From an uncultured Deferribacteres bacterium (GTDB taxonomy: Bacteria; Zhuqueibacterota; Zhuqueibacteria; Zhuqueibacterales; Geothermadaptataceae): a stretch of DNA of 23,734 bases. Positions 1,288 through 20,420 of this stretch are shown here, in pieces. The stretch covers positions 1 through 23,734 of the forward strand of contig CAXHAT010000127.1 in assembly GCA_964014485.1 (NCBI GenBank), given 5' to 3'. Position 1 is the stretch's first letter. Each line of letters starts with the position of its first letter. The notes under the pieces are model-generated. The model saw nothing but the letters and a program-made list of their open reading frames with translations. It was not told the origin of the DNA and did not search any database. Made by a program: the position numbers and the translations under genes.

Positions 1288-2541
1288 CTATCGCGTCTGA
1301 CAAGGTTCGAACTGTGGCAGTTGCTCCATCTTTTCTTCCGAGTAAGGCTCTTCACCAAAGAGCATGGGGTAATGAAAGTGTCGCAGTGTGCTGTGAAATT
1401 GGCGAACACAATCTATGTAGCGCAGGTGCTGGGCGACATCGGTTTTGGCGGTGCGGCTGAGCCAGCGATCAATTAACAACGGCGGTGAGAAGAAAGAGAC
1501 CCACGCCATGCGCTGGTCGCGACGGGTAATGCCCTGGTAAAGGGCAGTCGACAATGGCTGCGCTTCCTGATCACCAACCTGCTGGAAGGCGTAGTACCAT
1601 TTCCACTCGAAGGGCTGATTCACCGCGGCTCCCTCGCTCCATTCCGGATGCACTTCGACGAATCGATCCATCGTTGCCGGTTTGGGAAGATCCCAGGCGT
1701 CATTCACAGTCTCACGCTGGGTCAGCAATATGTCGCCGCCATCGGGGACTGTGATCGATTGTTCAGCAACGAGCTTTCCGGCAAGCGGAATAATGCTGGT
1801 GAGCAGCAACCAAAGCCCGAACAATGTCGCGGCCGCGGTAACACCTTCGATCTTTCTGCTTGTCACGATTCGACAGACGCCCAGCCAGAAAATTGTGTGA
1901 ATCATCACTGCCAGGACAATGCTTAGGCTTGTCGCCAGCGCGACGTTTGAGAAAAGAAGGGCTGCCAGAAAAGGAGCAATGATAGCCGCGAACAGCAGCA
2001 CGGCGCGGGCGCAGGCACGAAAGAGGAGCACGCGTTCGCCGCTGATACTGGTTGCGCAGAGCAATTCGTACCGAGATTCTCGGCGTTCGCGGGCGTCGAG
2101 ATCAAAGAGCAAGCCGATCAACAAAAGAGGCAAAATGATGGCGACAACATAGGCAAAGTCTAAGCTGCCCAAATGCGACAGCTCGGGGTTGCCTGGATCG
2201 CTCTCATAAATCTGCCCTTCAAGCGCGAGGATTCTGAGACGGTGCTTCCAGGGAAGTTCGTCGCGCATTCCCATGGCTGTAAAGGCGAGTTTGGAAGGCG
2301 GGTCATAGGTGAGATGGAAGACGTAGTAACCGGCGCTGCCAGCGTCGCCCTGTGTCGGCAGGACGTGCGCTTGATCAGCTGCTGTCTCAGATTTGAGAAC
2401 CGCCAACTGGTCTTCCTGATGCTGAATCGCGAGCCACCCATTGATGAGGGAAATTCCTGAGAGGAGAAACGCGATCAACAGTGTCCAACGAACTACTTTC
2501 TCATTTAACGCAAAGCGAATTTCATGCAATAGATCAGACAT
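1288..2541 (-). CDS. ABC-2-type permease with DUF3526 domain (module B, second subunit)
   Basis: TM helices, ERRE motif, QRETVNDAWD and FEWKWYYAFQQVGD motifs. Start placed at ATG 2541 (MSDLLHE), overlapping the upstream stop by 8 nt. Confidence 0.85.
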   Translation of the reverse strand: MSDLLHEIRFALNEKVVRWTLLIAFLLSGISLINGWLAIQHQEDQLAVLKSETAADQAHVLPTQGDAGSAGYYVFHLTYDPPSKLAFTAMGMRDELPWKHRLRILALEGQIYESDPGNPELSHLGSLDFAYVVAIILPLLLIGLLFDLDARERRESRYELLCATSISGERVLLFRACARAVLLFAAIIAPFLAALLFSNVALATSLSIVLAVMIHTIFWLGVCRIVTSRKIEGVTAAATLFGLWLLLTSIIPLAGKLVAEQSITVPDGGDILLTQRETVNDAWDLPKPATMDRFVEVHPEWSEGAAVNQPFEWKWYYAFQQVGDQEAQPLSTALYQGITRRDQRMAWVSFFSPPLLIDRWLSRTAKTDVAQHLRYIDCVRQFHSTLRHFHYPMLFGEEPYSEEKMEQLPQFEPCQTR

Positions 2542-3988
2542 CGTTCTCTCTAAAAAGTCGTTGTGTCCCGGCGGCGCCGAAAAGAGCGGAACCCGCAACC
2601 CAGGATAATAGAATGATTAGCTGCGGCAGGATTTCAGACAGACGCTCCCCGGCGCCAGACGGCTGCCAGGAGAAGGTTTTTAGCAACCTCCAGTTTTCGC
2701 CGCTGATGCGTGCTCGCTGTGAGGACGCTTCATCGTCGCTGCGCCGAATGTCATCAGCGTAAGACAGTTGATGGGCGTGCAATTGATTGATTTTTTGTAC
2801 AAAATCATAGCGCAAAGCTTCAGCGTCGCGCAGGAAACGGTGATGCTGGCGCAAATCTGTACTGGCCAATGAAATAGAAAAAGCCTTCGCTACCAGTGCC
2901 GGCGACAGCGGACTCAGCCAGCGCACCAGATGAGATTGAGCGCTTTCTTTTTCCATGCGCTCGTCAGCGAATGTATTGAGGACTTCGGTAAGGTTGGCTT
3001 CACTGGTATGAGCAACCATGCCGCGGAAGTTTACCGGCAGACCCTCCACGTCTTTGACATTGTATTGCTCCAGCAACTGGGCGCGAAGCTTTTCAAAGGC
3101 AGGGTCGTTGGCGTTGTGACCGTCGCCGAGCTCACGCAAGGTGCGCGTCATCTCCAGATCTTTCGCTATTTTGCCGTCCAGGGGCACGGCGGTCCCCGCT
3201 GCGCTGCTGGCCAGTCTCGGCAAGATCACGCAGAGCAGGACCCAGTTGGAGAGCAAGATCGATAACGACAAAGATGATTGTCGCGCCCAGGCAGATACGG
3301 CCGTAATCAGGCTCGACCAGCAAGCCAGATACGCCATGTAGCCCAGAAAAAACACACTGGCAATAATGACGTTCTCGCCTTGCGTCACGGCGAAGACCAG
3401 GGCGATCGCCATCGGGATAAGTGCGATCATGGCAACACTGGTCAGAGCGAGCGATTTGCCCAGCCACAGCTCGACCGGGGAAATAGCGCTCGTCACCAGG
3501 ATGTAGTCGGTTTTTCCCTCGCGTTCTCTCGAAATGGAAGCAAAGCCGATGATCACGAACAAGAGAGGCGCCAGTATTTGATAAGAAAAAGCGGGCGTCA
3601 GTTCAGCGAACGAGCCGGCTTGGGGTGCAGAATATCGCGGGGAAAAGACGGCGGTGTTTTGCCTGTGTCCTTCCAGGAACATGATGGTGCCCGTGTGCGT
3701 GTCTACACCAGGATCGATCATCGCGAGGGGCGCAGGGGTACGGAACACGTAGTGGCCGTAGTGAACCATGCGGTGCGGGTGGCGTGCGGGTTGCTCTCGG
3801 AAGGTTTGCTCAGCATTCGCTTGGAAGTTTTCACGCGCGGCCCGTTCAGTTTCTACTTGAAGCGTTGTGCTGACGATTGATGCGAGCACAAGCATGAGCA
3901 GGGTCAGGCCTGTAATCACGCCAAGCCTCGAACGTCGCCAATAGCGCCATTCTTCCTTCGCAATCAGAAAGGCGGTTTGTATTTTCAT
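2534..3988 (-). CDS. ABC-2-type permease with DUF3526 domain (module B, first subunit)
   Basis: IAKEEWR N-terminus, HPHRMVHYGHY loop, SREREGKT, GDGHNAND. Confidence 0.87.
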   Translation of the reverse strand: MKIQTAFLIAKEEWRYWRRSRLGVITGLTLLMLVLASIVSTTLQVETERAARENFQANAEQTFREQPARHPHRMVHYGHYVFRTPAPLAMIDPGVDTHTGTIMFLEGHRQNTAVFSPRYSAPQAGSFAELTPAFSYQILAPLLFVIIGFASISREREGKTDYILVTSAISPVELWLGKSLALTSVAMIALIPMAIALVFAVTQGENVIIASVFFLGYMAYLACWSSLITAVSAWARQSSLSLSILLSNWVLLCVILPRLASSAAGTAVPLDGKIAKDLEMTRTLRELGDGHNANDPAFEKLRAQLLEQYNVKDVEGLPVNFRGMVAHTSEANLTEVLNTFADERMEKESAQSHLVRWLSPLSPALVAKAFSISLASTDLRQHHRFLRDAEALRYDFVQKINQLHAHQLSYADDIRRSDDEASSQRARISGENWRLLKTFSWQPSGAGERLSEILPQLIILLSWVAGSALFGAAGTQRLFRENDV

Positions 3989-4713
3989 TGGCCATTATGC
4001 TCCGCAAAAGTTTGATGCAAGCTTTCAGCGGAAATCTGTCCATTCTCAGGCGCCTCGAAAATTCCCACCATTTGTCCCTTCTGCAACAAGCCAACACGGC
4101 GCGCAACATGGCACGCGCCATAGACGTCGTGTGTGACCATGAGCGTCGTCGTGCCTTTGTTTGCAAGTGCGATCAGAATGGCATTAAATTCATCGATTGC
4201 GATGGGATCAAGCCCTGAAGTCGGCTCATCCAGTAACAGTACCGGGGTCTTTCGCAACACCGCCAAGGCGATGGCCACCTTTTGCCGCATGCCTTTGGAG
4301 TAGGAAGCGAGTCTTCTCGATCTCGAATCTTCGGCCAGGCTGACGGTATTCAAGGCATGTTCGATCTCGTCTGAAGAACGGTTAACGCGAGCGAGCGAGA
4401 GGAAATACTTGAGATTCTCACGTGCTGAGAGATGAGCATAGAGATTGGCAGATTCCGGCAAATAAGCCGTTTGCTGGCGGATGGCGGCTTTGTCTTCGTG
4501 GGCGACAACGCCATTGACGCTAGCACTGCCCTCCGAAGGATTGAGAAAGCCCAGGAAGGTCAACAAAGTTGTCGACTTGCCCGCGCCGTTGCCGCCGAGC
4601 AGGGCGAAGACTTCGCCATGGCCGACGCTGAAGCTGACGTTAGTGAGGACGCGACGACCGCCGCGATCAACACACAGGCCGTTTGCTACTAACACAGATT
4701 TTTTCTTCGACAT
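3985..4713 (-). CDS. ABC transporter ATP-binding protein (module B)
   Basis: Walker A GGNGAGKS, signature YSKGMRQK, Walker B LLLDEPT, H-loop VTHD; 4-nt overlap with downstream permease. Confidence 0.95.
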   Translation of the reverse strand: MSKKKSVLVANGLCVDRGGRRVLTNVSFSVGHGEVFALLGGNGAGKSTTLLTFLGFLNPSEGSASVNGVVAHEDKAAIRQQTAYLPESANLYAHLSARENLKYFLSLARVNRSSDEIEHALNTVSLAEDSRSRRLASYSKGMRQKVAIALAVLRKTPVLLLDEPTSGLDPIAIDEFNAILIALANKGTTTLMVTHDVYGACHVARRVGLLQKGQMVGIFEAPENGQISAESLHQTFAEHNGQ

Positions 4714-4907
4714 TTAGATTCCCACAGAAAAGAGATTTTGATTATGAAGCGCTTTTCTTTCGCTACCATCTTCACTTGCACTAATGGTTGATAAGTGATG
4801 ATTCCCTTGAACTCTGAATCCAGAAGATTGAAAATTTGATGTTACGCGCCAATGCATTTCCTGATAGTCAAGTACAAACATCGTCTCATTAACACCTGGC
4901 TTCAGCC

Positions 4908-5111
4908 CAATGCCCTAACTTTTTACTTTTTGGGTTCAAATTGTCTGTCGCAGCAAAGGCACGCTAAAGCGTGGACTACAAACGACAGAGCATCCGTCAA
5001 TTTTGAGCGTGACGAAAGCACGGTCGTTTGTAGTCCATGCTTTAGCATGTTTTTCGACAGTCGTCGCTTGGGCGTTTTTGAACTCAGAATCATGAAAAGT
5101 TAGTGACATTG
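4908..5111. mobile_element. IS4-family-like MITE nested in a hairpin
   Basis: Ends CAATGCCCTAACTTTT / AAAAGTTAGTGACATTG; 10-bp direct repeat GGCTTCAGCC at 4898..4907 and 5112..5121. Confidence 0.75.
4960..5049. repeat. Inverted pair of GTAG-type REP-like sequences (REPIN-like)
   Basis: 27-bp arms 4960..4986 and 5023..5049 with 2 differences that are compensatory in the internal hairpin (CACGC/GCGTG vs CATGC/GCATG); GTAG lies 2 nt before each hairpin. Confidence 0.75.
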
Positions 5112-5301
5112 GGCTTCAGCCAGGAGACGAGCGAGAGACTCACCCCCCTTTCTCTTCCACTCCCGAAACGTCGGGACGGTGGAAGAGAGGGAAGAAGGCG
5201 TTTCGTTTGTCACCGGACTGAAGTCCGGCGCTAATAGGAGAAGGCTTGTCCCGCAAAGAAGAATCTCCGTTGCGGTGCGTAACATCAGTGAAAATGTAAA
5301 C

Positions 5302-6720
5302 TCAGCTCACCAGCCGAAATCTCTTCAACTTTGCCGTCGCCCAGAACAACAGAACGCCTGTAAGAACGAGCAAGCCCGCCGCACCAGGCATGACGCGTGC
5401 GGAGATCACCGAAGTCTCTTCTTCCTGGAACTCAAATCGCGGCAACGCCTCGTAATCTCTTGAAGCCAAGCGTTCACTGCGAAAGATCTTCGGCGCCAGA
5501 AAGGACCGCCATTCCAAAAGGTATTCACGAAGCTGCCGGACATAGCTTTGTTGGCGCGCCACACTGGAACCTGCGATGTCATTCAGCGCCTCTTGCACGA
5601 CGACCGCCGGCGAGAGCAATCGAAACGTTCCGATGAGCGCCTGCTGATCCATGAGTCGACGTTCATATTCCTGCGCCACCGGCAGAACAGAGCTTTCAAC
5701 GTCTTGCTGCACGGCATAGAATGTGGAGACAAAATCGCGCCGCTGCTCCCCGGCGGCCAATTCGGGATGCTCGTGATAGAACTCCGCCAGCAATTCACTG
5801 CTCTTTCGCTGGGCGTCATTCTCCGCCGCTCGCATCTTGGAAACATATTCCATGCGGGAAGGGACCGGGCTGATTTGATTGATGGATATGTTGAGGAGAG
5901 CGGGTACGACGAGCAAAAAAAGGAGCCAGGCGCTCATCAATACGGTGAGATTCATCTCAGATTTCCGACCAAAGGCGGCGACCAAAGCCGTGAGCGCGAA
6001 CCAGAACGTCGCGTAGACGCCAATGATGGCCAGCCAGAAAACCAATCGATCCAACGGTAGAGCTACATCTGATCCCGCAACACCGAACATACCCCCCAGA
6101 ATACCCACGACAATCACCAAACCGGTCAATAGCGCAAGGCGCGCGAGCACTTTGCCAAAGACGAGCTTGCTCGCCGATAGTGGTTGCGAAAGCGCCAAAG
6201 CCAGGACGCCGCTTTCCTTTTCTCCGGAAAGAAGATTGTAGCCCAGTGCGATAATCAACAGCGGCAGCAGATAGACAATCACGAAAGTGAAGTCAAACTT
6301 GCCGGCGAGCAATCCAAGCGGACTGTCAATCTGATAGTTTCGGAAGAGATTGTCTTGTCTCCGAAACGGAGAGACGGAAGCGCGAAAGGGATAGAGATCG
6401 CTTTGGCCGATGGTCAGCGCCGAGAGCGGCCCCGGCGGCAGTGTTGCTTCGTAGGAGGCGCGGTTTGGTTGACCGCCCGCCGGTCTCCCGTTGTTCGCAT
6501 CGGGGTTCTGTTCCTGTTCTTCAACGGCGGCACGCTGCTCATCGAGTGCTTTCTCAGCTTCCAAAACATAATTTGCAATCGTTGTCTGACGCTGACTTTG
6601 CCAGTTTATACCGTTTTGGATGGCATATATCGCGAAGGCAAGCAACAGGAGCGCTGCGAACCAAAGCGTCTTTTCTCGCGCCATCAGACGCCACTCATTC
6701 TTAAAGACTTTTAAAAGCAT
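5302..6720 (-). CDS. ABC-2-type permease with DUF3526 domain (module A, second subunit)
   Basis: LTIGQSDLYP, FDFTFVIVYLLPLLII, SGEKESG, LSPAVVVQEALNDIAG motifs. Confidence 0.87.
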   Translation of the reverse strand: MLLKVFKNEWRLMAREKTLWFAALLLLAFAIYAIQNGINWQSQRQTTIANYVLEAEKALDEQRAAVEEQEQNPDANNGRPAGGQPNRASYEATLPPGPLSALTIGQSDLYPFRASVSPFRRQDNLFRNYQIDSPLGLLAGKFDFTFVIVYLLPLLIIALGYNLLSGEKESGVLALALSQPLSASKLVFGKVLARLALLTGLVIVVGILGGMFGVAGSDVALPLDRLVFWLAIIGVYATFWFALTALVAAFGRKSEMNLTVLMSAWLLFLLVVPALLNISINQISPVPSRMEYVSKMRAAENDAQRKSSELLAEFYHEHPELAAGEQRRDFVSTFYAVQQDVESSVLPVAQEYERRLMDQQALIGTFRLLSPAVVVQEALNDIAGSSVARQQSYVRQLREYLLEWRSFLAPKIFRSERLASRDYEALPRFEFQEEETSVISARVMPGAAGLLVLTGVLLFWATAKLKRFRLVS

Positions 6721-6839: not shown

Positions 6840-8264
6840 TCAAACGACGCGCACATTATTCACCGAGCGAATCATAATCATAAAGGACAGAACTCCCCAG
6901 AGCGCAAGAATGCCAAGTTGCAGCGGGTAGTGGGAGAGAACCCAGGAGAAACTCGGTGAACTGTATTCGATCTGAGGCACATCTTGCCAAAGTTTCTCAT
7001 CAGCCATATAACCAAATCCGGCCTCGGCGCCGTTCTCCGCCAGGTCGTCGTTAAGGATTTTGACAATCTTGCGGCGGTGCAGTTCAGCGGCGTCTGCGAA
7101 ATGACGATGCTGGTGCAGATCCGTTCCTGCAAATCCTCTTGAGATGGCGCTCACAGCAATGGACGGAGATAGAACGCTGGCGAATGCTTGCAGATTTTCC
7201 TGGTTGGTGAATGTGTCCCACAATTGCTGGTAGTGTTTGTCGAAAACCAGGTTGCTGTATTCTTCGCTGTCCTGCAAACGAATGCCGGCATAATTGACAG
7301 GGAGATCCTCGACTTTGTCGACGCCATATTGTTCGAGGACTCTTTGTTGCAGTGCTTCACTCCGCTGACGGCGGGAAGTTTGACCATCAAGGCCTTCATC
7401 GACATCCGTGCTGACGCCTTCCCAAAAAGCCGTGATGGACGGCGTTGGATAGACAGACTCCGCGACGTCTGCACTGAGACGCGGCAGAAGAAGTCCGCCG
7501 CCGATCCAAAAACCAAGCAGAACGAGCAGAGCCAATCTGGGTGTTTTTGCTTTGGCTGAAACAGCGAGGGTCAGGCTGAAAAAGGCTATAAAGTACAGAG
7601 TGTAGATCAGGCCAAGCCCGAACAAGCGAGGCACAATTGCCGGGAAGCTGTCAGCATTTACACTCAAACCCAACAGCGCAAGGGCAACGATGGTGACTGG
7701 AACGAGCGCCAGCGCCAGGGCGGCCCCAATGCCAAGCGTTTTGCCCAGCGCCAACTGGCTGCTGCGCAGTCCCAGACTCTTAAGCTGTTTCAATGTACCT
7801 TGCTCCCTTTCGCCGGCAAATGCACTGAAACCCATGATGATAATAAACAAAGGTATCAGGTATTGCAGCGTCCACGCGGCAGTCAAATCACCGAACCTTT
7901 GCAAGGACGTCGCATCTTCCGCGGGACGGAAGCCGGCCGGATCTTGAGAATGCGCTTCGAGCCAAATTGCCGTTCCCAAAAACGAGTTCAATCCGCGATC
8001 TATGTAGGCCAGAAACGGGGTCGGTTTGAAAGCGTAGTGACCGAAGTGTGCGGCGGAGTGCGGATTGCGCGCGCCCTGCGCCAGCCAAGTTTCGCGGTCG
8101 GCTTTCTCCGCCGTTTCACGCTCATTTTGAGCCTGTTCTGCATACTGCCATCCGGTTGCAAGCGCCGCCAGCAGCAGCACTAGCAGTACGCCGGAAAGCC
8201 AGCGGAAACGCCCGTCGCGGACGATTTCCTTGAATTCCTTTTTTGCGATTATGAATGTAGTCAT
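6840..8264 (-). CDS. ABC-2-type permease with DUF3526 domain (module A, first subunit)
   Basis: IAKKEF, NPHSAAHFGHYAFKP, GEREQGTL. Start at ATG 8264 follows a GGAGG RBS. Confidence 0.87.
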   Translation of the reverse strand: MTTFIIAKKEFKEIVRDGRFRWLSGVLLVLLLAALATGWQYAEQAQNERETAEKADRETWLAQGARNPHSAAHFGHYAFKPTPFLAYIDRGLNSFLGTAIWLEAHSQDPAGFRPAEDATSLQRFGDLTAAWTLQYLIPLFIIIMGFSAFAGEREQGTLKQLKSLGLRSSQLALGKTLGIGAALALALVPVTIVALALLGLSVNADSFPAIVPRLFGLGLIYTLYFIAFFSLTLAVSAKAKTPRLALLVLLGFWIGGGLLLPRLSADVAESVYPTPSITAFWEGVSTDVDEGLDGQTSRRQRSEALQQRVLEQYGVDKVEDLPVNYAGIRLQDSEEYSNLVFDKHYQQLWDTFTNQENLQAFASVLSPSIAVSAISRGFAGTDLHQHRHFADAAELHRRKIVKILNDDLAENGAEAGFGYMADEKLWQDVPQIEYSSPSFSWVLSHYPLQLGILALWGVLSFMIMIRSVNNVRVV

Positions 8265-8345
8265 CCTCTTCCTCCTTGGTTTCTTCATCATTTTAAAATT
8301 TGCTTACTCACTTAAGCGCCTTTATTTTTCTCAGGAAGGGAAAGC

Positions 8346-9407
8346 CTAATGTCGTTCCCCCGTCAAAGCCGCTCTCAGGACTGCACCGTTTGAATCGTTT
8401 AGTGACATTTGGTCGCACTCAACCTGGATCACTGCATAAGCCATATTGAATTCGGCGTGAAGCAGTTCTCTGATGCGCAACTTAAGCTCTGTAACGTCAC
8501 TCAATAGCATGTCTTCCAGTACGACGTGCAGCGTACAGCAGAGATATTGTGACGTGATCTCCCAGATGCGCAAATCATGGACATCAAGAATTTCCGGCAA
8601 AGTGTTTTTCAAACTTCGTTTGACCCGGTCGGGGCTTATCGCGTCCGGCTTCCCTTCCAGTAGAATGCGGAAGGCGTCCCGCAACAGCGCCCACGACCAC
8701 TTTAACACAACCAGAGCGACGATAGTGCTCAGCAGCGGATCAATCAGGAGCCAGCCGGTGTACATCATGACAAATCCCCCAATGACGATTACGACTGAGG
8801 AAAACAAGTCGCCCAGCATGTGCAGATATGCACTGCGCGTATTTAGATCTTCCACGCCAGAGCGATGGAGAATCGCCGCAGTCACAATGTTTACGACGAG
8901 GCCAAGTGCGGCCACAAAGATCATCTCTTGGGTGGAAACCAATTCCGGCGCCGCCAGCCGTTCGAGCGCCTCAAAGATGATCCAGCCTGCCAGGGCCAAC
9001 AGCAGAAGACCGTTGAACAGGGCGGCTATGATCTCCAGCCGATACCAGCCAAACGGCAGCGCATCACTGTGTTTACGCGTTGCAAATACAATGGCGAGCA
9101 GGCTCACGGCTAAAGAAGCTGAATGACTTAGCATATGCAGTCCGTCGCTTGAAAGCATCAAGCTGCCGGTGTAATGTCCGGCAAGAAGCTCGACAACGGT
9201 CATCACCAGCGTGATTACCAGGCAATACCACAACGCCTTCTTTTGCCCTGTACGCTCAGGCCCGATCCGGTGGACATGAAAATGATGGCCCTGGTTTTGG
9301 CAGCAGGAGTTGGACTGATGATGATCGTGATTGTGCCGGTTCCGGTGCATTATTCTGCTTTCAATTGGGCAGTTGTAATCCACTGATGTCGTGCGTGGTG
9401 TTTTCAT
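8346..9407 (-). CDS. Cation diffusion facilitator (CzcD/DmeF-like) with His-rich N-terminus
   Basis: SLMLSSDGLHMLSH, FGWYRLEIIAALFN, DLNTRSAYLHMLGD, VHDLRIW; true start may be near 9350 (MHRNRH). Confidence 0.93.
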   Translation of the reverse strand: MKTPRTTSVDYNCPIESRIMHRNRHNHDHHQSNSCCQNQGHHFHVHRIGPERTGQKKALWYCLVITLVMTVVELLAGHYTGSLMLSSDGLHMLSHSASLAVSLLAIVFATRKHSDALPFGWYRLEIIAALFNGLLLLALAGWIIFEALERLAAPELVSTQEMIFVAALGLVVNIVTAAILHRSGVEDLNTRSAYLHMLGDLFSSVVIVIGGFVMMYTGWLLIDPLLSTIVALVVLKWSWALLRDAFRILLEGKPDAISPDRVKRSLKNTLPEILDVHDLRIWEITSQYLCCTLHVVLEDMLLSDVTELKLRIRELLHAEFNMAYAVIQVECDQMSLNDSNGAVLRAALTGERH

Positions 9408-9553: not shown

Positions 9554-10258
9554 TCATTCATGCATCTGTTCAAGATAGATGTTCTCCAGATCCACATGCG
9601 AAAGATCGTCCGTGTTTTGCGACTCCACCAATTTCCCCTGCTTCATAATGCCGACGCGTGTGCCGGTTTCTTTCGCCCGGAAGAGATCGTGCGTCGCCAT
9701 GAGGATGGCAGTTCCAGTCTCCGAAAGTTGCTTTAGCAGCGCGGCAAACTCGTTGCTGGCTTTTGGGTCGAGGCCTGAGGTCGGTTCGTCCAGCAAAAGG
9801 GCTTCCGCCTCCTTCGCCACAGCGATGGCAATGCCAACTTTCTGGCGCATGCCCTTGGAGTAGGTAGAGACGCGCTCTTGCGCTGCTTTTGCATTCAATC
9901 CTACCTTCGAAAGGATTTCCAGATAACCATCTTCGGCGTAATCATCATGTCCGGCGAGGGCGGTGAAGTATTCCAGATTTTCCAGGCCGGTCAGATTGCC
10001 GTACAGGGCGACCTGTTCAGGGATGTAGGCAAGGTATTTTTTGGTTTCCAAAGCGTGAGAGGCGACGTCCAGATCTTTTATGCGCGCAGTGCCGCCGGTC
10101 GGCTCGATGAAATTCAAAAACAGATTGATGGTGGTGGTTTTGCCCGCGCCGTTTGCGCCTAACAGACAAAAGATTTCTCCCGACTCGATTTTCAGGTTTA
10201 GTGAATCAAGTGCGGTTGTTCCGTTATATTTTTTGGTAAGATTAACGGCTTCTAACAT
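9554..10258 (-). CDS. ABC transporter ATP-binding protein (module A)
   Basis: GANGAGKT, YSKGMRQK, LLLDEPT, ATHD. Start at ATG 10258 follows AAGGAG. Confidence 0.95.
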   Translation of the reverse strand: MLEAVNLTKKYNGTTALDSLNLKIESGEIFCLLGANGAGKTTTINLFLNFIEPTGGTARIKDLDVASHALETKKYLAYIPEQVALYGNLTGLENLEYFTALAGHDDYAEDGYLEILSKVGLNAKAAQERVSTYSKGMRQKVGIAIAVAKEAEALLLDEPTSGLDPKASNEFAALLKQLSETGTAILMATHDLFRAKETGTRVGIMKQGKLVESQNTDDLSHVDLENIYLEQMHE

Positions 10259-11453: not shown

Positions 11454-11504
11454 TGATTATTATAGGCTCTATGTCGTTTTGTGTGGGTGAAACGCTTAAA
11501 AGCT

Positions 11505-11834: not shown

Positions 11835-11907
11835 GAGAAATGATCAAATACAAAAATGATTTACCCACACAAAACGACATAGAACCTTATTATAGAACTC
11901 CTTCAGC

Positions 11908-13182
11908 TTACCGTTGCGCCAGCGTTCGGGCGATGTCCGTGCGATAGGCCTGGATGGCCGGCAGCAGCGCGGTGATGACGCCGACCGCAAGCGCCAGCAC
12001 AGCGATCCACAGCTCTTCCGGCAGCACGATCCAGCCTGTCAGCTCGACCTGTTGCGCCTCGCGGAGAAAAAGACCTAACATCTCCGTTGCCGCGTGGCCG
12101 AGCAGCAAACCGAGCACGGCACCGCTTAAGGTCATCAGAACGCCTTCGAGCAGAACATGCAGAAGTAGCTTTGTCCGTGAGGCGCCCATGGTCCGCATGA
12201 CGGCCAGATCGTAGCGCCGGTCATTCAGAGCGTTATAGAGCGCCACAAACACGCTGAGCGCCGCGGCGGCGATCAGGATCACGCCAAAAGCCCGGACGGC
12301 GTCCAGGCCGACCCCCAAAAGCGAATACAAACGCGCCGTTTCGAAGGCTGGTGATGCAGCCTGCAAATTGGTTTCGCTGTTGACAAACCGCGGGAACATC
12401 GCCGCCGCTATCGGCGAGCTGTATTGAATCAACAGCGTTGTCACTTCCTTGCCTTCGCTGTCGTCGAGCGCAAAGATATCGTCCTCAGACGCGTGGTCGG
12501 CGTGCTCGCCGTCATGCCCGTCGTCATGTTCCTCTTCTATTTCCGCGTGATCTTCATCGCTTGCAGTTTTCTCATGCACGTCCCAGACCGTGGGAATGCT
12601 GGTCAGCAGCAGACGGTCCACAACCGTACCGCTCGGTTGTAGAATGCCGACGATTCGGAGAGCGTGGTCGTGGTGGCCGGCGCCGCCGTCGTTCAAGCCG
12701 TGCGAGCTGACGATTTCATCGCCAATTTTCAGCCCGGCTTCTTCCGCCGCTCGCGCGCCGACCGTCACTTCCAGCGCCTTTTCCCAGAGCCTGCCTTCAC
12801 CCGCTGAAATGCCGTAGTGCATGGGATAATCGTGGGTCGTCCCGACGATGCGATAACCGCGGTAGCTGTCGCCCAAAGCCAGCGGAATGGCCTTTTTGAC
12901 GGCGCGCTGGGCGACAATCTTCCTGGCTTCAGGCAGTGGAATATTGCCGGTCGGCACGTCCACATGATAGATGCTGGAAAGAATGAGCTGCATCGGACTG
13001 CCCTTGGCGCCGACCACGAGATCGATCCCTTCGGCGTCGCGGGTCAAACTCTCTTCGAATTGCGCGCCGAAGAGCAGAAGCACGACAATGGTGGCGACGC
13101 CGAGCGCCAACAGCAGTGTGTTGAGTACACTGTTGAGTTTGCGACGCCGGATGTATGAAAAATTGAGTTTGATGAGATTCAT
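11908..13182 (-). CDS. MacB/FtsX-type ABC permease with His/Asp-rich periplasmic loop (ZrgC-like)
   Basis: DLVVGAKGSPMQLILSSIYH, PLALGDSYRGYRIVGTT, SSHG, RRYDLAVMRTMGAS, LLPAIQAYR. Confidence 0.9.
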   Translation of the reverse strand: MNLIKLNFSYIRRRKLNSVLNTLLLALGVATIVVLLLFGAQFEESLTRDAEGIDLVVGAKGSPMQLILSSIYHVDVPTGNIPLPEARKIVAQRAVKKAIPLALGDSYRGYRIVGTTHDYPMHYGISAGEGRLWEKALEVTVGARAAEEAGLKIGDEIVSSHGLNDGGAGHHDHALRIVGILQPSGTVVDRLLLTSIPTVWDVHEKTASDEDHAEIEEEHDDGHDGEHADHASEDDIFALDDSEGKEVTTLLIQYSSPIAAAMFPRFVNSETNLQAASPAFETARLYSLLGVGLDAVRAFGVILIAAAALSVFVALYNALNDRRYDLAVMRTMGASRTKLLLHVLLEGVLMTLSGAVLGLLLGHAATEMLGLFLREAQQVELTGWIVLPEELWIAVLALAVGVITALLPAIQAYRTDIARTLAQR

Positions 13183-13194: not shown

Positions 13195-13836
13195 TCATTC
13201 TGTAAATGCGTTCAGGGTCAGCTTATTTTCGAATCGGCCCTGCACGCGGCGATCGTGGGTCGTGAGTATCAGCGTAGCGTTTTGCCGGTTCGCCTGGTCG
13301 ATCAGCAAATCCAAAACCTGATTGCTATGCATGTCGTCCAGGCTCGATGTAGGTTCGTCGGCCAGGATGACGGCAGGGCGGTTCATGACGGCGCGAGCAA
13401 TGGCTGCCCGTTGTTGCTGGCCGTAGCTCAATTCTTCGGGATAGGCGTCCGCTTTATCGGTAATATCAAGGCTGCCGAGCACTTCCTGCACCCGCGCCGG
13501 TTCCTGGCGCAGGCCGGCAAGGTATTGCGCCAGCAGCAGGTTACCGGCCACGGTCAGGGTCGGCAGCAAGTGCAACTGCTGGAAAACAATGCCGATATGA
13601 CGTCCTCGAAAGGTATCGAGTTCGGCCCCGCGAAATTGGCCAATTTTTTCATCCGCGACCTCGATAGTCCCCCGCGAAGGTCGCAGCAGTCCGGTCATGA
13701 GGTGCAGCAAGGTGGTTTTGCCGCTGCCGGACTGGCCCATGACCAACCAGTGCGAGCCTTGTACCGCTTCGAACCGCGGCATATCGAGAACAGTCTTTCC
13801 TGCAAAACCATGGATGATATTTTCGAGCTTAACCAT
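13195..13836 (-). CDS. ABC transporter ATP-binding protein (LolD/ZrgB-like)
   Basis: [33 protein letters not shown]. Confidence 0.95.
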
Positions 13837-13838
13837 AA

Positions 13839-14408
13839 CTATTCCTTTTTCTCAAGCGGTGAAGCCTGCAGAAATTGTTGAATCAACAGACTGTCTTCTT
13901 TGGTGAGGAGTGGTGCGTCCATCTGCTCTTGTTCATGTTCAGGTTTCGGCTGCAACTCCTCGAGTGAAATCTGTTCCGGCTGAGCCTTCGTCATGCGAAA
14001 GAGCATGTATTCGCGCAAGCGGACGTCGATCTCCAATTCGCCACTCATCTTAATGGGTTCATAGGTAAACGGAACCGGCGTCTCGCTGACGACTTCCAGA
14101 TAGGACGTTGGACCGCCGCCGCCGCAAAACCCACAGGAGGCGTCATTCATGGCCAAAACGAAATGCTTGTGTTTCTGCCCGCGCCCTAAGGGAAACATAT
14201 ATCCGATCAGCGAGATGCGTTTGCCGACGAGCGCCTTCAAACTGTCACTGAAAATGACAGTCGTTGCACTGTTGTCTGCGTACGGCTCGAACCTGGTTTC
14301 CAGAAACGGATCCCAGCTCACCGGGATCGCAGGCGGGTGCGGCGAATCCGCGCACGAAAAAAGACCGCAAAGAACACACAGGAGTAAGTTGTATTTCATG
14401 TCATTCAT
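13839..14408 (-). CDS. DUF3299-like lipoprotein with CxxC
   Basis: Lipobox-like LFSC; LVGKRISLIGYMFPL...HFVL...CGFCGGGGP...LEV; paralog of 10817..11302. Confidence 0.75.
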   Translation of the reverse strand: MNDMKYNLLLCVLCGLFSCADSPHPPAIPVSWDPFLETRFEPYADNSATTVIFSDSLKALVGKRISLIGYMFPLGRGQKHKHFVLAMNDASCGFCGGGGPTSYLEVVSETPVPFTYEPIKMSGELEIDVRLREYMLFRMTKAQPEQISLEELQPKPEHEQEQMDAPLLTKEDSLLIQQFLQASPLEKKE

Positions 14409-14436
14409 CTTGTTATCTGATTCATTTAAAGATCAT

Positions 14437-14703
14437 CCGACATTCCGCACGTCAATTTTTGCATTTGAAATCATTTATTGACAGAACATTTTTTTGACAA
14501 CTTCTGCATCCGCCTGGATTTTATATTTCATTAGCCCCGGCTTTCAAGCCGGGGTTTTGGTTATATCACGCTTCCCTTCTCCCCGCCGCGCTTGCGAGGC
14601 GGGGAGAAGGGGGTGAAGAACGCTCTTGTCGCCGCCCTGAAGGACGGCGCTAATGAGAGAAAGCAATGATCCCTATCTCCAATTTTCGTGTGCGGAATGT
14701 CGG
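14437..14703. mobile_element. MITE with CCGACATTCCGCAC ends (IS1634-like)
   Basis: Perfect 14-bp TIR; 5-bp direct repeat ATCAT at 14432..14436 and 14704..14708. Confidence 0.85.
14528..14656. repeat. Three-hairpin REP-like unit bounded by TCATTAGC/GCTAATGA
   Basis: Hairpins CCCCGGCTT/AAGCCGGGG, CCCTTCTCCCCGCC/GGCGGGGAGAAGGG and GCCG(C)CC/GGACGGC; same layout at about 4886..5238. Confidence 0.75.
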
Positions 14704-14704
14704 A

Positions 14705-16903
14705 TCATATCTGCAACTGGTAGTTCAACTTCATAATGATCTGGCGCGTCTCCGGAAAAGGGGAAAGTCCGTTCCCCTCGAATTTCGAGTCGTTGAAAAC
14801 GAGATAGAGATACGACAGCGGCGCGAACTCCCAGGCGAATCGCACATTCCAACTCGAGTTCTCGCTAAAAGAATTGTATTGATAAAAAGCAAACATCTGC
14901 AGGCGCGGATTGAGCGCCAGTCGCAGCTCGGGGCCGAGAAGATGCGTGGTCTGCTCTTCTTCCAAAATGCCGAGATCGCCGGCATGATTGAGTTCGTATT
15001 CGGCGGTCAGTGCAGCATACGGAGAAGGGGCATATTTGAGTCGAATGCCCAATTCTTCGCGCTTGCCGTTGAAATAATCCCCAGTCGAGCCAAAAACACT
15101 CGCCGCCACTCGTTTCGACTGATCTGACCCTACGCGCAGCCGGTAACGCCAATAGGTGTAATTGCCGGCTGCCAGCGCGACGCCGAATGGCCGGAAGAAT
15201 TGAACATCTTTTTCTTCCAGTCGCTGCCAATTCGGAATCAGATAAAACGCCAGCCAACCTCCATTTTCGAATACAATACTCAGAGGTCTAAGGGTTAGCC
15301 AACCTTCCTGGAATTTTCGATCAGATGCGCGATGATACCAATACCCGGTAAACCCAGGATCAAAGTTTCGGATGAACCCCGGTCGCCATTGAGGGCGTAA
15401 GTCCAGAGAGACGGCCGGACTGGTGACGATCAGGTTTCTTCTGACGAGAAATCCGGAAGCCGGATTGTAATTCTCCGAAACAACCGCCTGAAAATGGCCG
15501 ACATATCCCCAGCTTGTCCGATTATAAATCCATAAATTCGCGGCCAAACCATCCCCTTCGGCGCCGGCTGTCCAGGATCGCGAAATCATTGGAATCGCTG
15601 TGGCCGTCTCGGTCAATCGAAATAAGCCGTCCAGGCTGACAACCGTATTATGGACAGAATTGTTTTCTCCCGATGATTCATCATATCGATGCGTAACCAG
15701 TCCGCCGATCCTGTTGATCTTGCCAATATTTCGGTTATAGCGCGCGACGCCAAAATGACTCGCGGGACTTCCTGAATTTCCCCGCTGTCGAATGAATAAT
15801 GCGCCGCCGCTCTGCGCGACGTCGCGAAATGTGATGCGCCCCCCGGCGTCGATAGGGATAGGACTGCCCGAGTTATCGAGTCCAATTCGGCGGCTGAAAA
15901 AGGGCTTGACCGACAGCGTGCTGCCAATATCAAACAGACTGCCGTTTTCAAGGAAAAATTGCCGCTTTTCGGGGAAGAAAACCGAAAAGCGCGTGGTATT
16001 AATCACTTGTCGGTCGGCGTCGGCTTCAGCGAAGTCGGTGTTAAAAGTCAAATCGAGCGCACTATTGGGCGTCAATGCCCATTTTAAGTCGCCGCCGATA
16101 TCAGGATCCGTATTGCTGTTCGTCGTTGTGAGATTTCGAACGCGATTTCCGCGACCGCTTATATAGGGCTGAATGCGAAGGTTTCGGGACGGCGGCGGCG
16201 GCGAAAGGCCTCTAATCACCCCGGCATACTCCATTCGGTAGGGCGAATAAACGCGAGGCCAAGCCGACCAGCCGGTAATCTCCTTGTTGCGGCGGATGTT
16301 ACGGACGAAGTTTATACCCCACTCGGCATTTTCGCCTGCTGGATACCGGAGCGTAGACCACGGTATCGCCATCTCAACAGTCCAACACGAATCTGTGACC
16401 GCCGTGCGTGTCTTCCAGCGATCGTTCCAGTCGGTATTGAAAAACTGTCCGTCGATCACCTGTAGATCACGCTGTGAGCCATAAGGGTTTGCTTGGAAAG
16501 TCTGGCTGTTGCGTTCATCCCGGAACGGATCAAAACTGACTCCGAAAAGGTCGTTTTCAAAGTAATCAAAATCCCGGCGCAGATCGGGCACGCGCACGCC
16601 GGAAAAACCGGTCGAATCCCTGCAAATGGCGCCGATATAGAGATTTTTCTTGTCAAAAAGCACGCGGACTTCCGTGTCGAAATTCGGTTTACTCCCCTGA
16701 TTTGGCTCCACCTGCGTAAAACTGTTGGCGGGCCTTGCCAAGCGCCAGGCAGGATCATCCAATTTACCGTCAATGGCCAGCGCCCCGTTCGCACGGCCTG
16801 CGTGGATTGTGGGGCGTTCGGATGGCGGCGGAAAGACGTCTTGCGCCTGCACGGTCATCACAAATCCGAGCACGATGATCGCAAAAATTACGCTGGTTTT
16901 CAT
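14705..16903 (-). CDS. CBM9-like + DUF5916 outer-membrane protein
   Basis: Signal peptide; IDGKLDDPAW..FTQVEP; WTVEMAIPWSTLRY; LDLTFNTDFAEADAD..TRFSVFFPEKRQFFLE; FFSRRIG; beta-strand-rich C-terminus. Confidence 0.88.
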   Translation of the reverse strand: MKTSVIFAIIVLGFVMTVQAQDVFPPPSERPTIHAGRANGALAIDGKLDDPAWRLARPANSFTQVEPNQGSKPNFDTEVRVLFDKKNLYIGAICRDSTGFSGVRVPDLRRDFDYFENDLFGVSFDPFRDERNSQTFQANPYGSQRDLQVIDGQFFNTDWNDRWKTRTAVTDSCWTVEMAIPWSTLRYPAGENAEWGINFVRNIRRNKEITGWSAWPRVYSPYRMEYAGVIRGLSPPPPSRNLRIQPYISGRGNRVRNLTTTNSNTDPDIGGDLKWALTPNSALDLTFNTDFAEADADRQVINTTRFSVFFPEKRQFFLENGSLFDIGSTLSVKPFFSRRIGLDNSGSPIPIDAGGRITFRDVAQSGGALFIRQRGNSGSPASHFGVARYNRNIGKINRIGGLVTHRYDESSGENNSVHNTVVSLDGLFRLTETATAIPMISRSWTAGAEGDGLAANLWIYNRTSWGYVGHFQAVVSENYNPASGFLVRRNLIVTSPAVSLDLRPQWRPGFIRNFDPGFTGYWYHRASDRKFQEGWLTLRPLSIVFENGGWLAFYLIPNWQRLEEKDVQFFRPFGVALAAGNYTYWRYRLRVGSDQSKRVAASVFGSTGDYFNGKREELGIRLKYAPSPYAALTAEYELNHAGDLGILEEEQTTHLLGPELRLALNPRLQMFAFYQYNSFSENSSWNVRFAWEFAPLSYLYLVFNDSKFEGNGLSPFPETRQIIMKLNYQLQI

Positions 16904-16917: not shown

Positions 16918-19170
16918 CTATCTGATCAATGTATGCGTGTATTTGAGCACCAGCGCGCGGCTGTTCGAAAACGGCAGGCTCGGCCCAACGAAAACATCGC
17001 GTTCCGTGTTCAAGCCTTCGTCATAAACCAGCCACAAATCGTTGCCCTCGCCAAAATGGTAACGAAATCGCGCATTGAGGCTCAGTCTATCTGTAGCGCT
17101 ATTGTACTGGAGAAATGAGTTCAGGGAGATGCGTGTATTGAGGGCTGTTCGAACGCGCAAGCGGGCCAAATGGGAATCGAATTCCTGGTCGCGATCAGAA
17201 AAACGAATCGCATTGAGGATATAGTCACCACTCAGTTCAAGATGCCTTGAAAGATTCCATCGTGGCGTCACCTGGAGCGAAGTTTTCCAGCCATCATAAA
17301 AACTGCCGGCGCGAAGCGTCACGGTAGGTCGAAAATACCAGGCGTCCGGGCTGCTCACCGACAACCAGACGTTGTGAAACCAATAACTGCCTGGGAGGAT
17401 CTGGGCGTCGTCCCGCGAGGAGAGCGAAAACGGCATGCGCACATCCTCATAGAAATGATCGGTGGAGATGAGTGCGGAGGCTCCATTCTTGAACCCAAAC
17501 CAATAGAACGGGTGCAGCCAAACGGATTGAATACTGCCATCTTCGTTGCGCCGGTAGAATCGCCCCCAATGGCCAATCCAAACACGCCTCAGAATCGATG
17601 ACTCATCTTTGAAACTCTGGTAATCGATGCTGTTCCAAACATAGGTGAAATCGTTTCGTGCCTGGAAGCCAAGGCCGGGATCGAAATCCGCCCCGGCGCG
17701 TGAATAAGTCAGATCGTAACTGAATCCCTTGATCGACCGCCTCGCCCACGAGAAGAACAATCGACTGTTACGCAGCAAGTCATCGGGCTGGTCATTCTTT
17801 TGGGTGCGCGCCATTTTGAAGGTGAGATAGTCTTGACCGACAACGCGAACGACGCCATCGAGACCGTAGGCCAGATTGTAGTCGCCGTCTGTATCGATTT
17901 TTGAGGTGAGCATCCCTCCCACTGTGGAGTTCTCGTTGAGAATCTGCCTACGCAGACGGAGCACGCCAAAATTTTCCGTCGGAACATTCTCGGACTGCGC
18001 GCCCGCCGATTTATTGGCATGCATGTTGAGAAAGCCAACATCCCAATCGTCAATTCGCCCGACCAATCGGGCCCCGCCGTAGATTCGAGTGGGATTCCCA
18101 GATGCATCAAGTCCGATACGACGGCTGTGAAAGAGTCGATTCGAATTCTCAAAGCCAAATTCAAAAATGCCTGCCCGCTCCTGAAAAAACTGACGCTTCT
18201 CAGGGAAGAAAAGCGGGAATCGCGTCAGGTTGATCTGCTGATCATCGGCCTCGACCTGGGCGAAATCCGTATTTACAGTCGCGTCGAGGGTGAGATTGCG
18301 CGCCAGATTGTACTTCGCGTCCAGGCCAATCTCCGCAGGACTTTGGCGCGTACTCTGATAGCCCGTTTGCGTCGGATTTAACTCGGCAACTTGCTCAGTT
18401 CCGCCAAGAAAATACGGTGTGAAGTAAACCGGTTTTTGGCGGTAGACGCCCTCCAGAACAACGTCTTGCGCCACCGAGGGTTTGTTTGAAGCACGCTCCC
18501 AATTGGGCGGAATGTCCGGGTAGATGTATCGCTGCCCGCCGACTGAAATCCAGCGATATGCGATCAAACCCATAACGACCCGGCCATTGTCGTCCTGAAA
18601 CGGCAAACTCGAAAACGGGATGCGGAACTCCGCCGTCCAGCCATTCTCGTTCCGCTTGGTCGCTACATCCCAATGCGTATTCCAGTCGCTGTTTGAGTCT
18701 CTGCGGCCGCCGCTGGCGTCATTCGACACAGCGATGTCGGTCCGGGTTCCGAGGGGATTTGTATAGAACCACAGCGCGTTTTCATTATCGTTGAACGTAT
18801 CAAGGACGATGGCAAATGTATCGTCTCCGCTCCACAGGTCGCGATAATACGAGTTGCCGCGAATATCATTTGTATTGTTATGAAATAGTCGTCCCGACAT
18901 GTAGATCGCTTCGTCGTCGTATGCGACGCGAATCTCGGTGCGCTCTGTCATTTCGCCTTTATAAGTCGGCTGATACATAACCAGCGGCAACGGTTCGATT
19001 TTCGTCCAGGCAGGCTCATCGATGACGCCGTCAAGCACGATTGAACCGTCAAGACGAGGAAGCGGCAAAGGACCGTTCGCTTGTAGTTGAGGAGCAGTAA
19101 GCAGCAAAAAGAGCAAAAATCTATAGCGAGAGTAAAGGTCAATTCTAAATGAACGGTTTTCTTTTGTCAT
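16918..19170 (-). CDS. CBM9-like + DUF5916 outer-membrane protein
   Basis: LDGVIDEPAW; WTAEFRIPFSSL; LDATVNTDFAQVEADDQQINLTRFPLFFPEKRQFFQE; LFHSRRIG. ATG 19170 preferred because a signal peptide follows; ORF is open to 19236. Confidence 0.88.
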   Translation of the reverse strand: MTKENRSFRIDLYSRYRFLLFLLLTAPQLQANGPLPLPRLDGSIVLDGVIDEPAWTKIEPLPLVMYQPTYKGEMTERTEIRVAYDDEAIYMSGRLFHNNTNDIRGNSYYRDLWSGDDTFAIVLDTFNDNENALWFYTNPLGTRTDIAVSNDASGGRRDSNSDWNTHWDVATKRNENGWTAEFRIPFSSLPFQDDNGRVVMGLIAYRWISVGGQRYIYPDIPPNWERASNKPSVAQDVVLEGVYRQKPVYFTPYFLGGTEQVAELNPTQTGYQSTRQSPAEIGLDAKYNLARNLTLDATVNTDFAQVEADDQQINLTRFPLFFPEKRQFFQERAGIFEFGFENSNRLFHSRRIGLDASGNPTRIYGGARLVGRIDDWDVGFLNMHANKSAGAQSENVPTENFGVLRLRRQILNENSTVGGMLTSKIDTDGDYNLAYGLDGVVRVVGQDYLTFKMARTQKNDQPDDLLRNSRLFFSWARRSIKGFSYDLTYSRAGADFDPGLGFQARNDFTYVWNSIDYQSFKDESSILRRVWIGHWGRFYRRNEDGSIQSVWLHPFYWFGFKNGASALISTDHFYEDVRMPFSLSSRDDAQILPGSYWFHNVWLSVSSPDAWYFRPTVTLRAGSFYDGWKTSLQVTPRWNLSRHLELSGDYILNAIRFSDRDQEFDSHLARLRVRTALNTRISLNSFLQYNSATDRLSLNARFRYHFGEGNDLWLVYDEGLNTERDVFVGPSLPFSNSRALVLKYTHTLIR

Positions 19171-19348: not shown

Positions 19349-19678
19349 TCAGGAGAAGGGAGGCGCTCTAATTGCGCGCTGTTCGATGCGGTGGTTGGAT
19401 AAGAAATCAGCGGGAAGAAGCGGGGAATAAATTTCGAATTGATTAAAATGCTGCGTATTGTCGGCTGGAAGCAATTGCACAAACGAGAATTGGCAGGCGA
19501 TACAGAAATCGTGCTTCGCCCAAGTGAGCATTGCTTCCGTATGGGGCTGAACAATCTCCTCCTGCACACCCGTTGTAGCAATACCGGCATGAGTATGCCA
19601 AAAATCAACGGTCCCCGCCAGTGCAGCGTATACAGTGAGGAGGAATATCGAGATTGTGGTTTTCAGATTGTTCTTCAT
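19349..19678 (-). CDS. DUF2946-like small exported protein / putative RAPP ribosome-arrest leader
   Basis: N-terminal hydrophobic segment, HTH, HDFCIAC (C59,C62), C-terminal IRAPPFS. Confidence 0.8.
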   Translation of the reverse strand: MKNNLKTTISIFLLTVYAALAGTVDFWHTHAGIATTGVQEEIVQPHTEAMLTWAKHDFCIACQFSFVQLLPADNTQHFNQFEIYSPLLPADFLSNHRIEQRAIRAPPFS

Positions 19679-20078
19679 AAGAAGTTTTTATTCAAACCAA
19701 CAAGAACTGCTCGGTAAAAATCCGCGAGAAGGAGCGTCGTTCAGCATCTCCAGAAAAATATTCGATACAACCAACTTTCGAAGTCGGAAACCAAAGAGCA
19801 AAACCATTTCAGCGTGTGACATACACCTTTCGCAAACCAGACAAATAAGCGAAATGCAGCGAGATGTAATCACGCACGACTGCGCCCAAACTCCAAGATT
19901 TTGAACTGGCTATCGACAAGCCGCACTAGCTCGCCTCAAGCCATTCCAAATTTCCGGAAGCGTCTGGTCACACGATTGAAATTTTGCAGAAAGGTTGAAA
20001 AACGTAAGCGCTAAAACAGCCGGATGGAATGCGACAACTCAGGCTTTGTGCGTTCTCTCCGGGAGAGTTTTTAGCATG

Positions 20079-20420
20079 TTAGGCAGTAAATGGGGGAGCG
20101 CGCAGAGAGCAATGTGAAGTAAGATTTTGATAATCAAGAGGCGCGGAAACGTCCAGGATCATTCCGGCTGGCGTGAACCGTATCGCAGACATGCCGACTT
20201 GCGGCGTCGCCAAGTGTGTGGAGTGGAATATACAGGCCGAACAGAGCGCAACAAAACTTCCTTGGGTCGAAGAAGATTCTTCCGGAGTGTGAGCGGTTAA
20301 GTGCCGGGCTGTTCCGACTTCAACCAAACAGTCGATATGCGCTAATTCAGCACTGAATCCCAAGAAGAGCAGAACCCCGCTCATTAGTAAAGCGAGGGTT
20401 TTTCGATTGTCTTTTCGCAT
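20079..20420 (-). CDS. DUF2946-like small exported protein / putative RAPP ribosome-arrest leader
   Basis: N-terminal hydrophobic segment, several His, CSAC (C60,C63), C-terminal LRAPPFTA. Confidence 0.8.
   Translation of the reverse strand: MRKDNRKTLALLMSGVLLFLGFSAELAHIDCLVEVGTARHLTAHTPEESSSTQGSFVALCSACIFHSTHLATPQVGMSAIRFTPAGMILDVSAPLDYQNLTSHCSLRAPPFTA

Follow-up and report, generated by a model that had tools for sequence, protein, structure and literature searches.

A predicted DUF5916 barrel protein linked to DUF3526 ABC transporters in a mosaic gene island of an uncultured Deferribacteres bacterium

Introduction

Can a barrel protein of the DUF5916 family serve as an outer-membrane gate for metals, at the position in a gene cluster that is usually held by a TonB-dependent receptor? 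The question is raised by contig CAXHAT010000127.1 of an uncultured Deferribacteres bacterium, the whole of which (23,734 nts; C127 in this 97 %-complete genome of 8.4 Mb) is the window analysed here. As originally predicted, the window carries 16 co-oriented genes, all on the minus strand, from position 20420 down to 1288; coordinates of island genes below refer to that strand. In the order of transcription they comprise two small open reading frames (ORFs), the genes for two DUF5916 proteins, B and A, a DUF3299-like protein, an ATPase and an FtsX/MacB permease, followed by DUF3299, MerC, an ATPase, CDF, two DUF3526 permeases, a further ATPase and two more DUF3526 permeases. A Pfam scan of the 19 window ORFs identified four DUF3526/ABC-2 permeases, three ATP-binding cassette (ABC) ATPases, one CDF and one FtsX/MacB permease among the transporters, together with one MerC-domain protein, one DUF3299 protein and two proteins combining CBM9_1 with DUF5916. 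It also bore out the claim that no TonB-dependent receptor, TonB, solute-binding protein or glycoside hydrolase is encoded there.

The explanation that we put first, though tentatively, is a mosaic island for metal starvation (the metal being probably zinc) with DUF5916-A and a DUF3526 ABC transporter as its core, in which a metal chelate would enter through the barrel without the help of TonB. The A subfamily gives a concrete condition, partner and readout to a very large family (more than 5,000 and more than 7,800 relatives among 8,000 candidates scored), and cultured carriers exist, e.g., Flagellimonas nanhaiensis (locus L040). A full-text literature search, with subscription journals largely outside its coverage, gave no mention of DUF5916 or DUF3526; DUF3299 is named in four papers.

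Linkage of DUF5916-A to DUF3526 transporters

Among the evidence for this explanation is the repeated occurrence of DUF5916-A (14705–16903, 732 residues) next to DUF3526 genes. Among 79 GTDB loci, DUF3526 permeases lie near 12 of the 34 relatives of DUF5916-A at 36 % identity or more. Of the 45 relatives at 34 % or less, none has such permeases; in L056, which belongs to this distant group, an ATPase and a permease stub lie 5 kb from the DUF5916 gene. Within 30 kin genomes the A orthologue (59 % identity) and a strong DUF3526 pair are both found in G013 only, where the order is ATPase, barrel, permease, permease. A wider sample consisted of 300 evenly drawn Bacteroidota genomes, with the centre left out and no more than three candidates being scored in each. 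An A orthologue occurs in 13 of them and a strong DUF3526 gene (E under 1e-20) in 25; seven genomes have both, every time on one contig and within 16 kb. Four of these (L108–L111) show the order leader, barrel, ATPase, permease, permease without a TonB receptor. In FastTree phylogenies, the method used for all trees here, the linked A copies fall into three separate subclades, kin not being independent of each other, and the link recurs across families and phyla. The conserved association proposed in the original prediction thus holds for DUF5916-A with DUF3526 modules but not for DUF5916-B and the Zrg-like module, which are rarely linked elsewhere.

Such an association could also arise if DUF5916-A were co-regulated in metal starvation without carrying the metal itself, as a low-metal paralogue with a general envelope or small-molecule role, a possibility that we consider somewhat unlikely. 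In its favour, this genome contains 16 DUF5916 matches on 13 contigs (14 matches in another search), i.e., at least 13 loci, and most family members are orphans, the neighbour families of unlinked copies recurring in at most 6 loci. The barrel is devoid of conserved metal ligands, non-transport genes (FolE, PhoX) occur in the same loci, and L100 (G214:C1:1531957-1534583) consists of a leader ORF followed by DUF5916-A, without any ABC genes, in a genome whose DUF3526 matches are weak. What speaks for a closer partnership is the tightness of the arrangement: the barrel is less than 500 bp from the ABC module in 16 of the 18 loci measured and sits between the ATPase and the permeases in G013, and there is a DUF3526 clade whose 10 rows all have a DUF5916 gene in their vicinity.

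Two further observations concern more distant DUF3526-like genes. A second, divergent pair with weak Pfam scores is present in this genome (G000:C164:10736-15311), and weak matches occur in 19 of the 30 kin genomes; none of those compared adjoins a DUF5916 match.

Predicted structure of the DUF5916 proteins

Both proteins pass the Pfam DUF5916 model (PF19313; 57.6 and 80.5 bits, cut-off 22.6), with CBM9_1 scores of 44.3 and 35 bits. DUF5916-B (16918–19170, 750 residues) consists of a signal peptide, a CBM9-like domain (residues 31–241) and a predicted 24-strand barrel (248–745) with an internal loop (300–360); DUF5916-A has the same architecture at 28 % identity. In agreement with the barrel that had been proposed, AlphaFold yields confident models for both, with a predicted local distance difference test (pLDDT) of 92.6 and a predicted template-modelling score (pTM) of 0.90 for A, and 90.6 and 0.89 for B. 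Each model contains 24 barrel strands, counted by hand from DSSP strings, as against 22 in TonB-dependent transporters. After strand 3 the chain exits the barrel wall for about 60 residues, and the most conserved motif of the family lies in this loop. Structural alignments with TonB receptors often start there, facing the plug region (A residue 291, Cir residue 59), and the loop is likely to be the internal plug of the predicted barrel.

Like the TonB-dependent transporters Cir, BtuB and FyuA (Z 14–15, root-mean-square deviation (rmsd) 4–5), the models are large single-chain barrels with an occluded lumen. They differ in their 24 predicted strands, their putative plug formed by an internal loop and a CBM9/DOMON sandwich as N-domain. 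The N-domain had been expected to be small and plug-like; it turns out to span about 210 residues and to be a CBM9-like sandwich rather than a TonB plug. The Pfam models Plug (PF07715) and TonB barrel (PF00593) give no match at E 0.01, whereas true receptors in related loci match both. Fold searches found no close solved barrel (MtrB Z 15.5, Cir 15.2, PapC 14.5; overall rmsd 4–7), which does not imply that the fold is new, and a PDB sequence search with the DUF5916-A profile returned CBM9 only. “Hypothetical type 1” barrels, which may be DUF5916 proteins, are listed with 24 strands in a 2026 preprint (10.64898/2026.03.07.710327). One supplement of PMC10629564 does not mention DUF5916, and the larger tables of that work may name it.

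The N-domain of DUF5916-A has the immunoglobulin-like fold of CBM9 and matches 4jpq (Z 20.4) and 1i82_A (Z 20.2, with 178 residues aligned at an rmsd of 2.6), and the N-domains of both proteins align with CBM9 at Z 18–20. By normal barrel topology this predicted domain would lie in the periplasm. That the two proteins are barrels for sugar binding or uptake, present in the island by chance, is suggested by the CBM9 match, and in the case of DUF5916-B, with 1 linked relative among 70, a chance location is difficult to dismiss. We nevertheless judge this very improbable. A haem-binding subunit shares the fold of the N-domain (2ivf_C, Z 15.7 against the A domain), the link of A recurs across families and phyla, and sugar genes are scarce around unlinked copies: the 129 immediate neighbours of 66 unlinked loci include 2 glycoside hydrolases, 1 SusD and 1 TonB receptor. 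On these neighbours a polysaccharide-utilisation context was rejected. At the first position of the two-tryptophan sugar clamp of CBM9, which we take to be W71, A is without Trp and the Trp of B is shifted by one residue; the second position falls outside the alignment. The “carbohydrate-binding” name of DUF5916 is a matter of fold alone. Some unlinked DUF5916 genes (L029, L042, L049, L161) adjoin a pair of LytTR response regulator and histidine kinase.

The permeases, the metal and the direction of transport

In the module linked to DUF5916-A, the ATPase (9554–10258) is 74 % identical to its G013 counterpart and is followed by an inserted CDF cation transporter with a His-rich N-terminus (8346–9407), DUF3526 permease 1 (6840–8291) and DUF3526 permease 2 (5302–6720). 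The first permease of the pair has a first periplasmic loop, between helices 1 and 2, in which H78, H82 and H114 are invariant (43 of 43 sequences) and E112 nearly so (42 of 43); the second has no conserved His. A similar ZnuGHI-like set follows, with an ATPase (3985–4713), a permease 1 that keeps the His triad (2534–3988) and a permease 2 (1288–2541). The triad is the best evidence for a metal site in the whole cluster and would be a stand-in for a binding protein; a built-in periplasmic site of this kind would explain how ZnuGHI-type permeases do without one. The His- and Cys-rich motifs that had been noted throughout the cluster are indeed present in one permease per DUF3526 pair as well as in CDF, both small ORFs, the FtsX permease, MerC and the DUF3299 proteins, but they are missing from both DUF5916 proteins, whose His content is 1.1 % and 1.6 % as compared with 5.3–5.5 % in the small ORFs.

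One of the nearest described arrangements is found in Caulobacter crescentus. The znuGHI genes are described as an ABC-2 system beside a TonB receptor and under Zur repression (PMC4176598). As in ZnuK/ZnuGHI (CC1517; CC1518–1520), the window combines an ATPase and two ABC-2 permeases with an outer-membrane barrel and no solute-binding protein, and it does so with two such sets. Unlike in Caulobacter, the barrel is DUF5916 instead of a TonB receptor, there are two modules, and no Zur or Zur box was found. Caulobacter is the sole genome with a DUF3526 match among 14 control genomes; ZnuH and ZnuI are presumably the DUF3526 genes.

Zinc is the probable metal. It is favoured by the neighbours in linked loci, which include COG0523, DUF1826, ZIP, Fur-family, FolE and PhoX genes, and by the Zur control both of Caulobacter znuGHI and of zrgABCDE. 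Copper may also come into play, by analogy with CruR and NosY and with the SCO and PCuAC genes about 6 kb upstream of the G013 module, and cobalt may by analogy with the Pseudomonas work.

ABC-2 and MacB folds belong mostly to exporters. The barrel could accordingly be an exit port: the ABC-2 and MacB transporters load the periplasm with a metallophore, a spent chelator or a metal complex and DUF5916 releases it downhill without TonB. Besides the tendency of these folds and a match of the permease to PmtD, the proposed export of pyochelin-cobalt by PA4063-66 (PMC11481552) points in this direction; TonB receptors, present in 8 of the 19 linked loci, could then provide the inbound route, and the predicted topology places a CBM9 domain of ligand type in the periplasm. 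We find it unlikely, because there is no metallophore synthesis gene in the window, nor an obvious one in the linked loci with listed ORFs (in a scan that was not exhaustive), and because the three invariant His residues point towards the periplasm, which is what one would expect of a capture site.

A different role for ATP hydrolysis is brought up by the permeases. Among proteins of solved structure, both match NosY best (E 1.1e-11 and 1.8e-7), and the membrane domain of NosFY (PDB 7o0y), as presented in PMC8457098, is the closest for both. The DUF3526 proteins differ in that they form a heteromeric pair, carry two large insertions on the periplasmic side and have a His triad of their own, and no NosD accompanies them. 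The DUF3526 ABC transporter might thus be a NosFY-like motor for the hand-over of periplasmic metal, possibly copper, that opens the barrel through the CBM9-like domain, ATP taking the place of TonB. Copper-sensing CxxC/RAPP leaders in Bordetella (PMC9426467) and the SCO and PCuAC genes near the G013 module would fit; the NosY match, however, is limited to the membrane helices (profile positions 129–257), no NosD-like gene is present in the window, the partners also occur apart and zinc-type markers dominate the linked loci. Such a motor therefore appears doubtful, more so than an exit port.

TonB-dependent receptors

The original prediction saw DUF5916 in the position of the TonB receptor. 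In some loci a DUF5916 protein is indeed the sole barrel, but a general replacement is not what the neighbourhoods show. A TonB receptor lies within 7 kb in 8 of 19 linked loci (the 18 measured above and L046), including G013, where it is in the adjoining stretch. In a set of 41 DUF3526 loci, biased towards DUF5916 by the manner of its collection, DUF5916 is the sole type of barrel in 13 and a TonB receptor in 11, while 8 have both. This genome has 44 TonB-barrel matches elsewhere. One of its other contigs (C78:30390-34306) carries a leader ORF, a TonB receptor and a lipoprotein, and in G013 and L040 a leader-receptor-lipoprotein module of this type is located ahead of the DUF3526 operon. DUF5916 is therefore likely to be a partner of the transporter, with TonB receptors as a parallel entry route that has not been displaced.

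Leader ORFs and control of expression

The two small ORFs at the start of the island resemble CruR, a DUF2946 protein. CruR is described as the upstream ORF of Bordetella pertussis bfrG, in a TonB receptor operon that is expressed only when copper is scarce (PMC9426467). ORF 2 (20079–20420, 113 residues, with an N-terminal hydrophobic segment) and ORF 1 (19349–19678, 109 residues, directly upstream of DUF5916-B) both have an export signal and a CxxC motif, 47 and 45 residues, respectively, before a terminal RAPP; the gaps to the next gene are 400 and 178 bp. They share with CruR the export signal, the CxxC-to-RAPP spacing (49 in CruR), the long gap and the outer-membrane barrel gene that follows, and are unlike it in being arranged in tandem, in being His-rich and in having DUF5916 downstream. 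Neither of them gives any Pfam match even at E 1, and DUF2946 is not matched at this threshold by four leaders from related loci either. A profile built from 30 ORFs of other genomes, picked by motif, was run against the 31,889 small ORFs of the present genome and finds three clear matches (the next one has E 0.067): ORF 2 (E 6.8e-6), ORF 1 (E 1.1e-4) and the C78 leader, the first two preceding barrels and the third a TonB receptor. The genes behind the 30 leaders are an ATPase in 14 cases, DUF5916-A in 7, COG0523 in 3, a TonB receptor in 2 and others in 4.

The explanation that we favour would then work as follows. When the metal is scarce, ribosomes would stall at RAPP in the leader ORFs, allowing expression of the downstream genes, as for CruR. 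A metal chelate would cross the outer membrane via DUF5916-A into the periplasm, where the His3/Glu site on the DUF3526 loop would strip or capture the metal in place of the missing solute-binding protein, and ATP hydrolysis would move it onward. Around this core would have gathered DUF5916-B, the Zrg-like MacB module, MerC, CDF and a second DUF3526 module without its usual TonB receptor. The scheme points to leader-based control in a genome without a detected Fur-family regulator.

An extended version of it, that leader, DUF5916-A, ATPase and DUF3526 pair form a self-contained, TonB-independent uptake machine across two membranes, is a speculation to which we assign little probability. It would combine an ABC-2 transporter with a His3 site, ATP-driven gating, through the CBM9-like domain, of a 24-strand, loop-plugged barrel that would represent a novel class, and control by stalling leaders with neither Zur nor ZnuA. 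No ZnuA was found in the 97 %-complete genome, nor any full COG0523 or ZIP match by tblastn.

Weighing the evidence

A number of findings weigh against a metal gate made of DUF5916-A and the DUF3526 transporter. The two genes often occur apart: in the Bacteroidota sample, 18 of the 25 genomes with a strong DUF3526 gene lack an A orthologue and 6 of the 13 A orthologues lack a strong DUF3526 gene, metal genes are missing from the neighbourhoods of a fourth A subclade (15 rows), and 9 of the 41 DUF3526 loci have neither type of barrel nearby. Metal sites in the barrel, which the original prediction had suggested looking for, did not emerge. The conserved columns among 186 family members are Arg, Asp, Gly and aromatics, whereas His or Cys columns reach 42 % at most and the best Met column 65 %; the His content of linked copies does not exceed that of the unlinked ones (medians of 1.07 % and 1.41 %, respectively). 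The absence of conserved His, Cys or Met leaves a site for a bare metal ion unsupported and makes an organic ligand more likely.

Other points concern regulation and transport direction. A palindromic operator, ATGCAAC-N3-GTTGCAT, which is presumably a Zur-type box, is carried upstream by 15 of 40 related loci, as compared with a mean of 0.8 and a maximum of 4 in shuffles. This counts in favour of the explanation, but the operator is absent from the window, where the best score is 9.8 as against 13.6–24.4 at real sites. No Fur-family match was obtained by profile or tblastn in the 97 %-complete genome, in which such a gene may have been lost in assembly; the controls of the Fur-family and ZnuA searches were positive in 13 and 11 of 14 genomes, respectively. 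CDF proteins are usually exporters, and the solved structures to which the permeases are most closely related belong not to importers but to NosY and to PmtD, an exporter. The pyochelin-cobalt proposal for the Zrg-type PA4063-66 (PMC11481552) likewise concerns export, and CruR responds to copper, not zinc (PMC9426467).

Mosaic composition of the island

The original prediction treated the cluster as a single envelope-spanning system, a view that does not stand. As such links are rare elsewhere for both DUF5916-B and the Zrg module, the 19 kb are a mosaic and not one machine; a 16-gene machine was rejected on account of the mosaic origins and the repeat-filled gaps. The island looks as if DUF5916-B, the Zrg module, CDF and the second DUF3526 module had accreted around one conserved core. 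For DUF5916-B, only 1 of 70 relatives is linked, 40 of these loci having less than 3 kb on one side, so that B was discarded as a conserved metal partner; the single linked relative, in G235, branches as the sister of the window copy and is itself part of an island much like this one. All modules are found together in L035.

The Zrg-like module is made up of a DUF3299/ZrgE-like protein with a possible lipobox and a CxxC (13839–14408), an ABC ATPase of the FtsE/LolD type (13195–13836; Pfam) and an FtsX/MacB-type permease resembling Zrg and PA4065, with a His/acidic periplasmic stretch (11908–13182). The exported DUF3299 (ZrgE) protein with an invariant CxxC (10817–11302) and the MerC-domain membrane protein (10344–10778; Pfam) come next. 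The former is barely above the Pfam cut-off (22.9 versus 22 bits); the DUF3299-like protein of the module, 26 % identical to it (E 7e-9), has no Pfam match. As in Vibrio ZrgABCDE (PMC9817125) and Pseudomonas aeruginosa PA4063-PA4066 (PMC11481552), the genes for ATPase, FtsX/MacB permease and DUF3299 (ZrgE) are adjacent; unlike there, ZrgD is missing and two DUF3299-like genes are present. ZrgA (DUF2796), the periplasmic zinc-binding protein, has no Pfam match among the 19 window ORFs, to which the search was confined. A Zrg-like permease occurs in 23 of the 300 Bacteroidota genomes and in none of the 23 beside an A orthologue, so that a link between Zrg and DUF5916-A as a rule was rejected.

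The second DUF3526 module is closest to Pseudomonadota (62, 47 and 44 % identity in G656). In the two closest loci of that phylum a TonB receptor abuts the ATPase, a slot that is here taken by a repeat-filled gap (4714–5301, 161 blastn matches).

Intergenic repeats and flanking sequence

Together with this gap, those at 11303–11907 (605 bp) and 14409–14704 (hairpin repeats with 57 matches, a possible transcript break) are filled with genome-wide repeats, the tested stretches giving 15 to 172 blastn matches each. With repeats in three gaps, the 16 genes may not share a single transcript. Scans for promoters and terminators stayed at chance level (12 versus 8.8 and 17 versus 16.2, respectively). 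Hairpin-rich repeats are also present at 22479–22681; they are of a type like repetitive extragenic palindromes (REP) or miniature inverted-repeat transposable elements (MITE).

Two genes on the plus strand show no sign of belonging to the island: a potassium channel with TrkA domains, divergent from it (20766–22478), and a Gfo/Idh/MocA oxidoreductase exported by twin-arginine translocation (22682–23690). Positions 1–19 and 23691–23734 carry what we take to be Nextera transposon adapter sequence, which recurs at an end of 139 of the 465 contigs, and the ORF at 22682 consequently ends in residues that are an artefact. At the other end of the window, convergent on the island, 37–984 (plus strand) encodes the C-terminal half of a third, distant DUF5916 protein. 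Its N-terminal half is probably the fragment that ends contig C398: the two pieces match consecutive parts of L213, and the contig ends share 5 bases.

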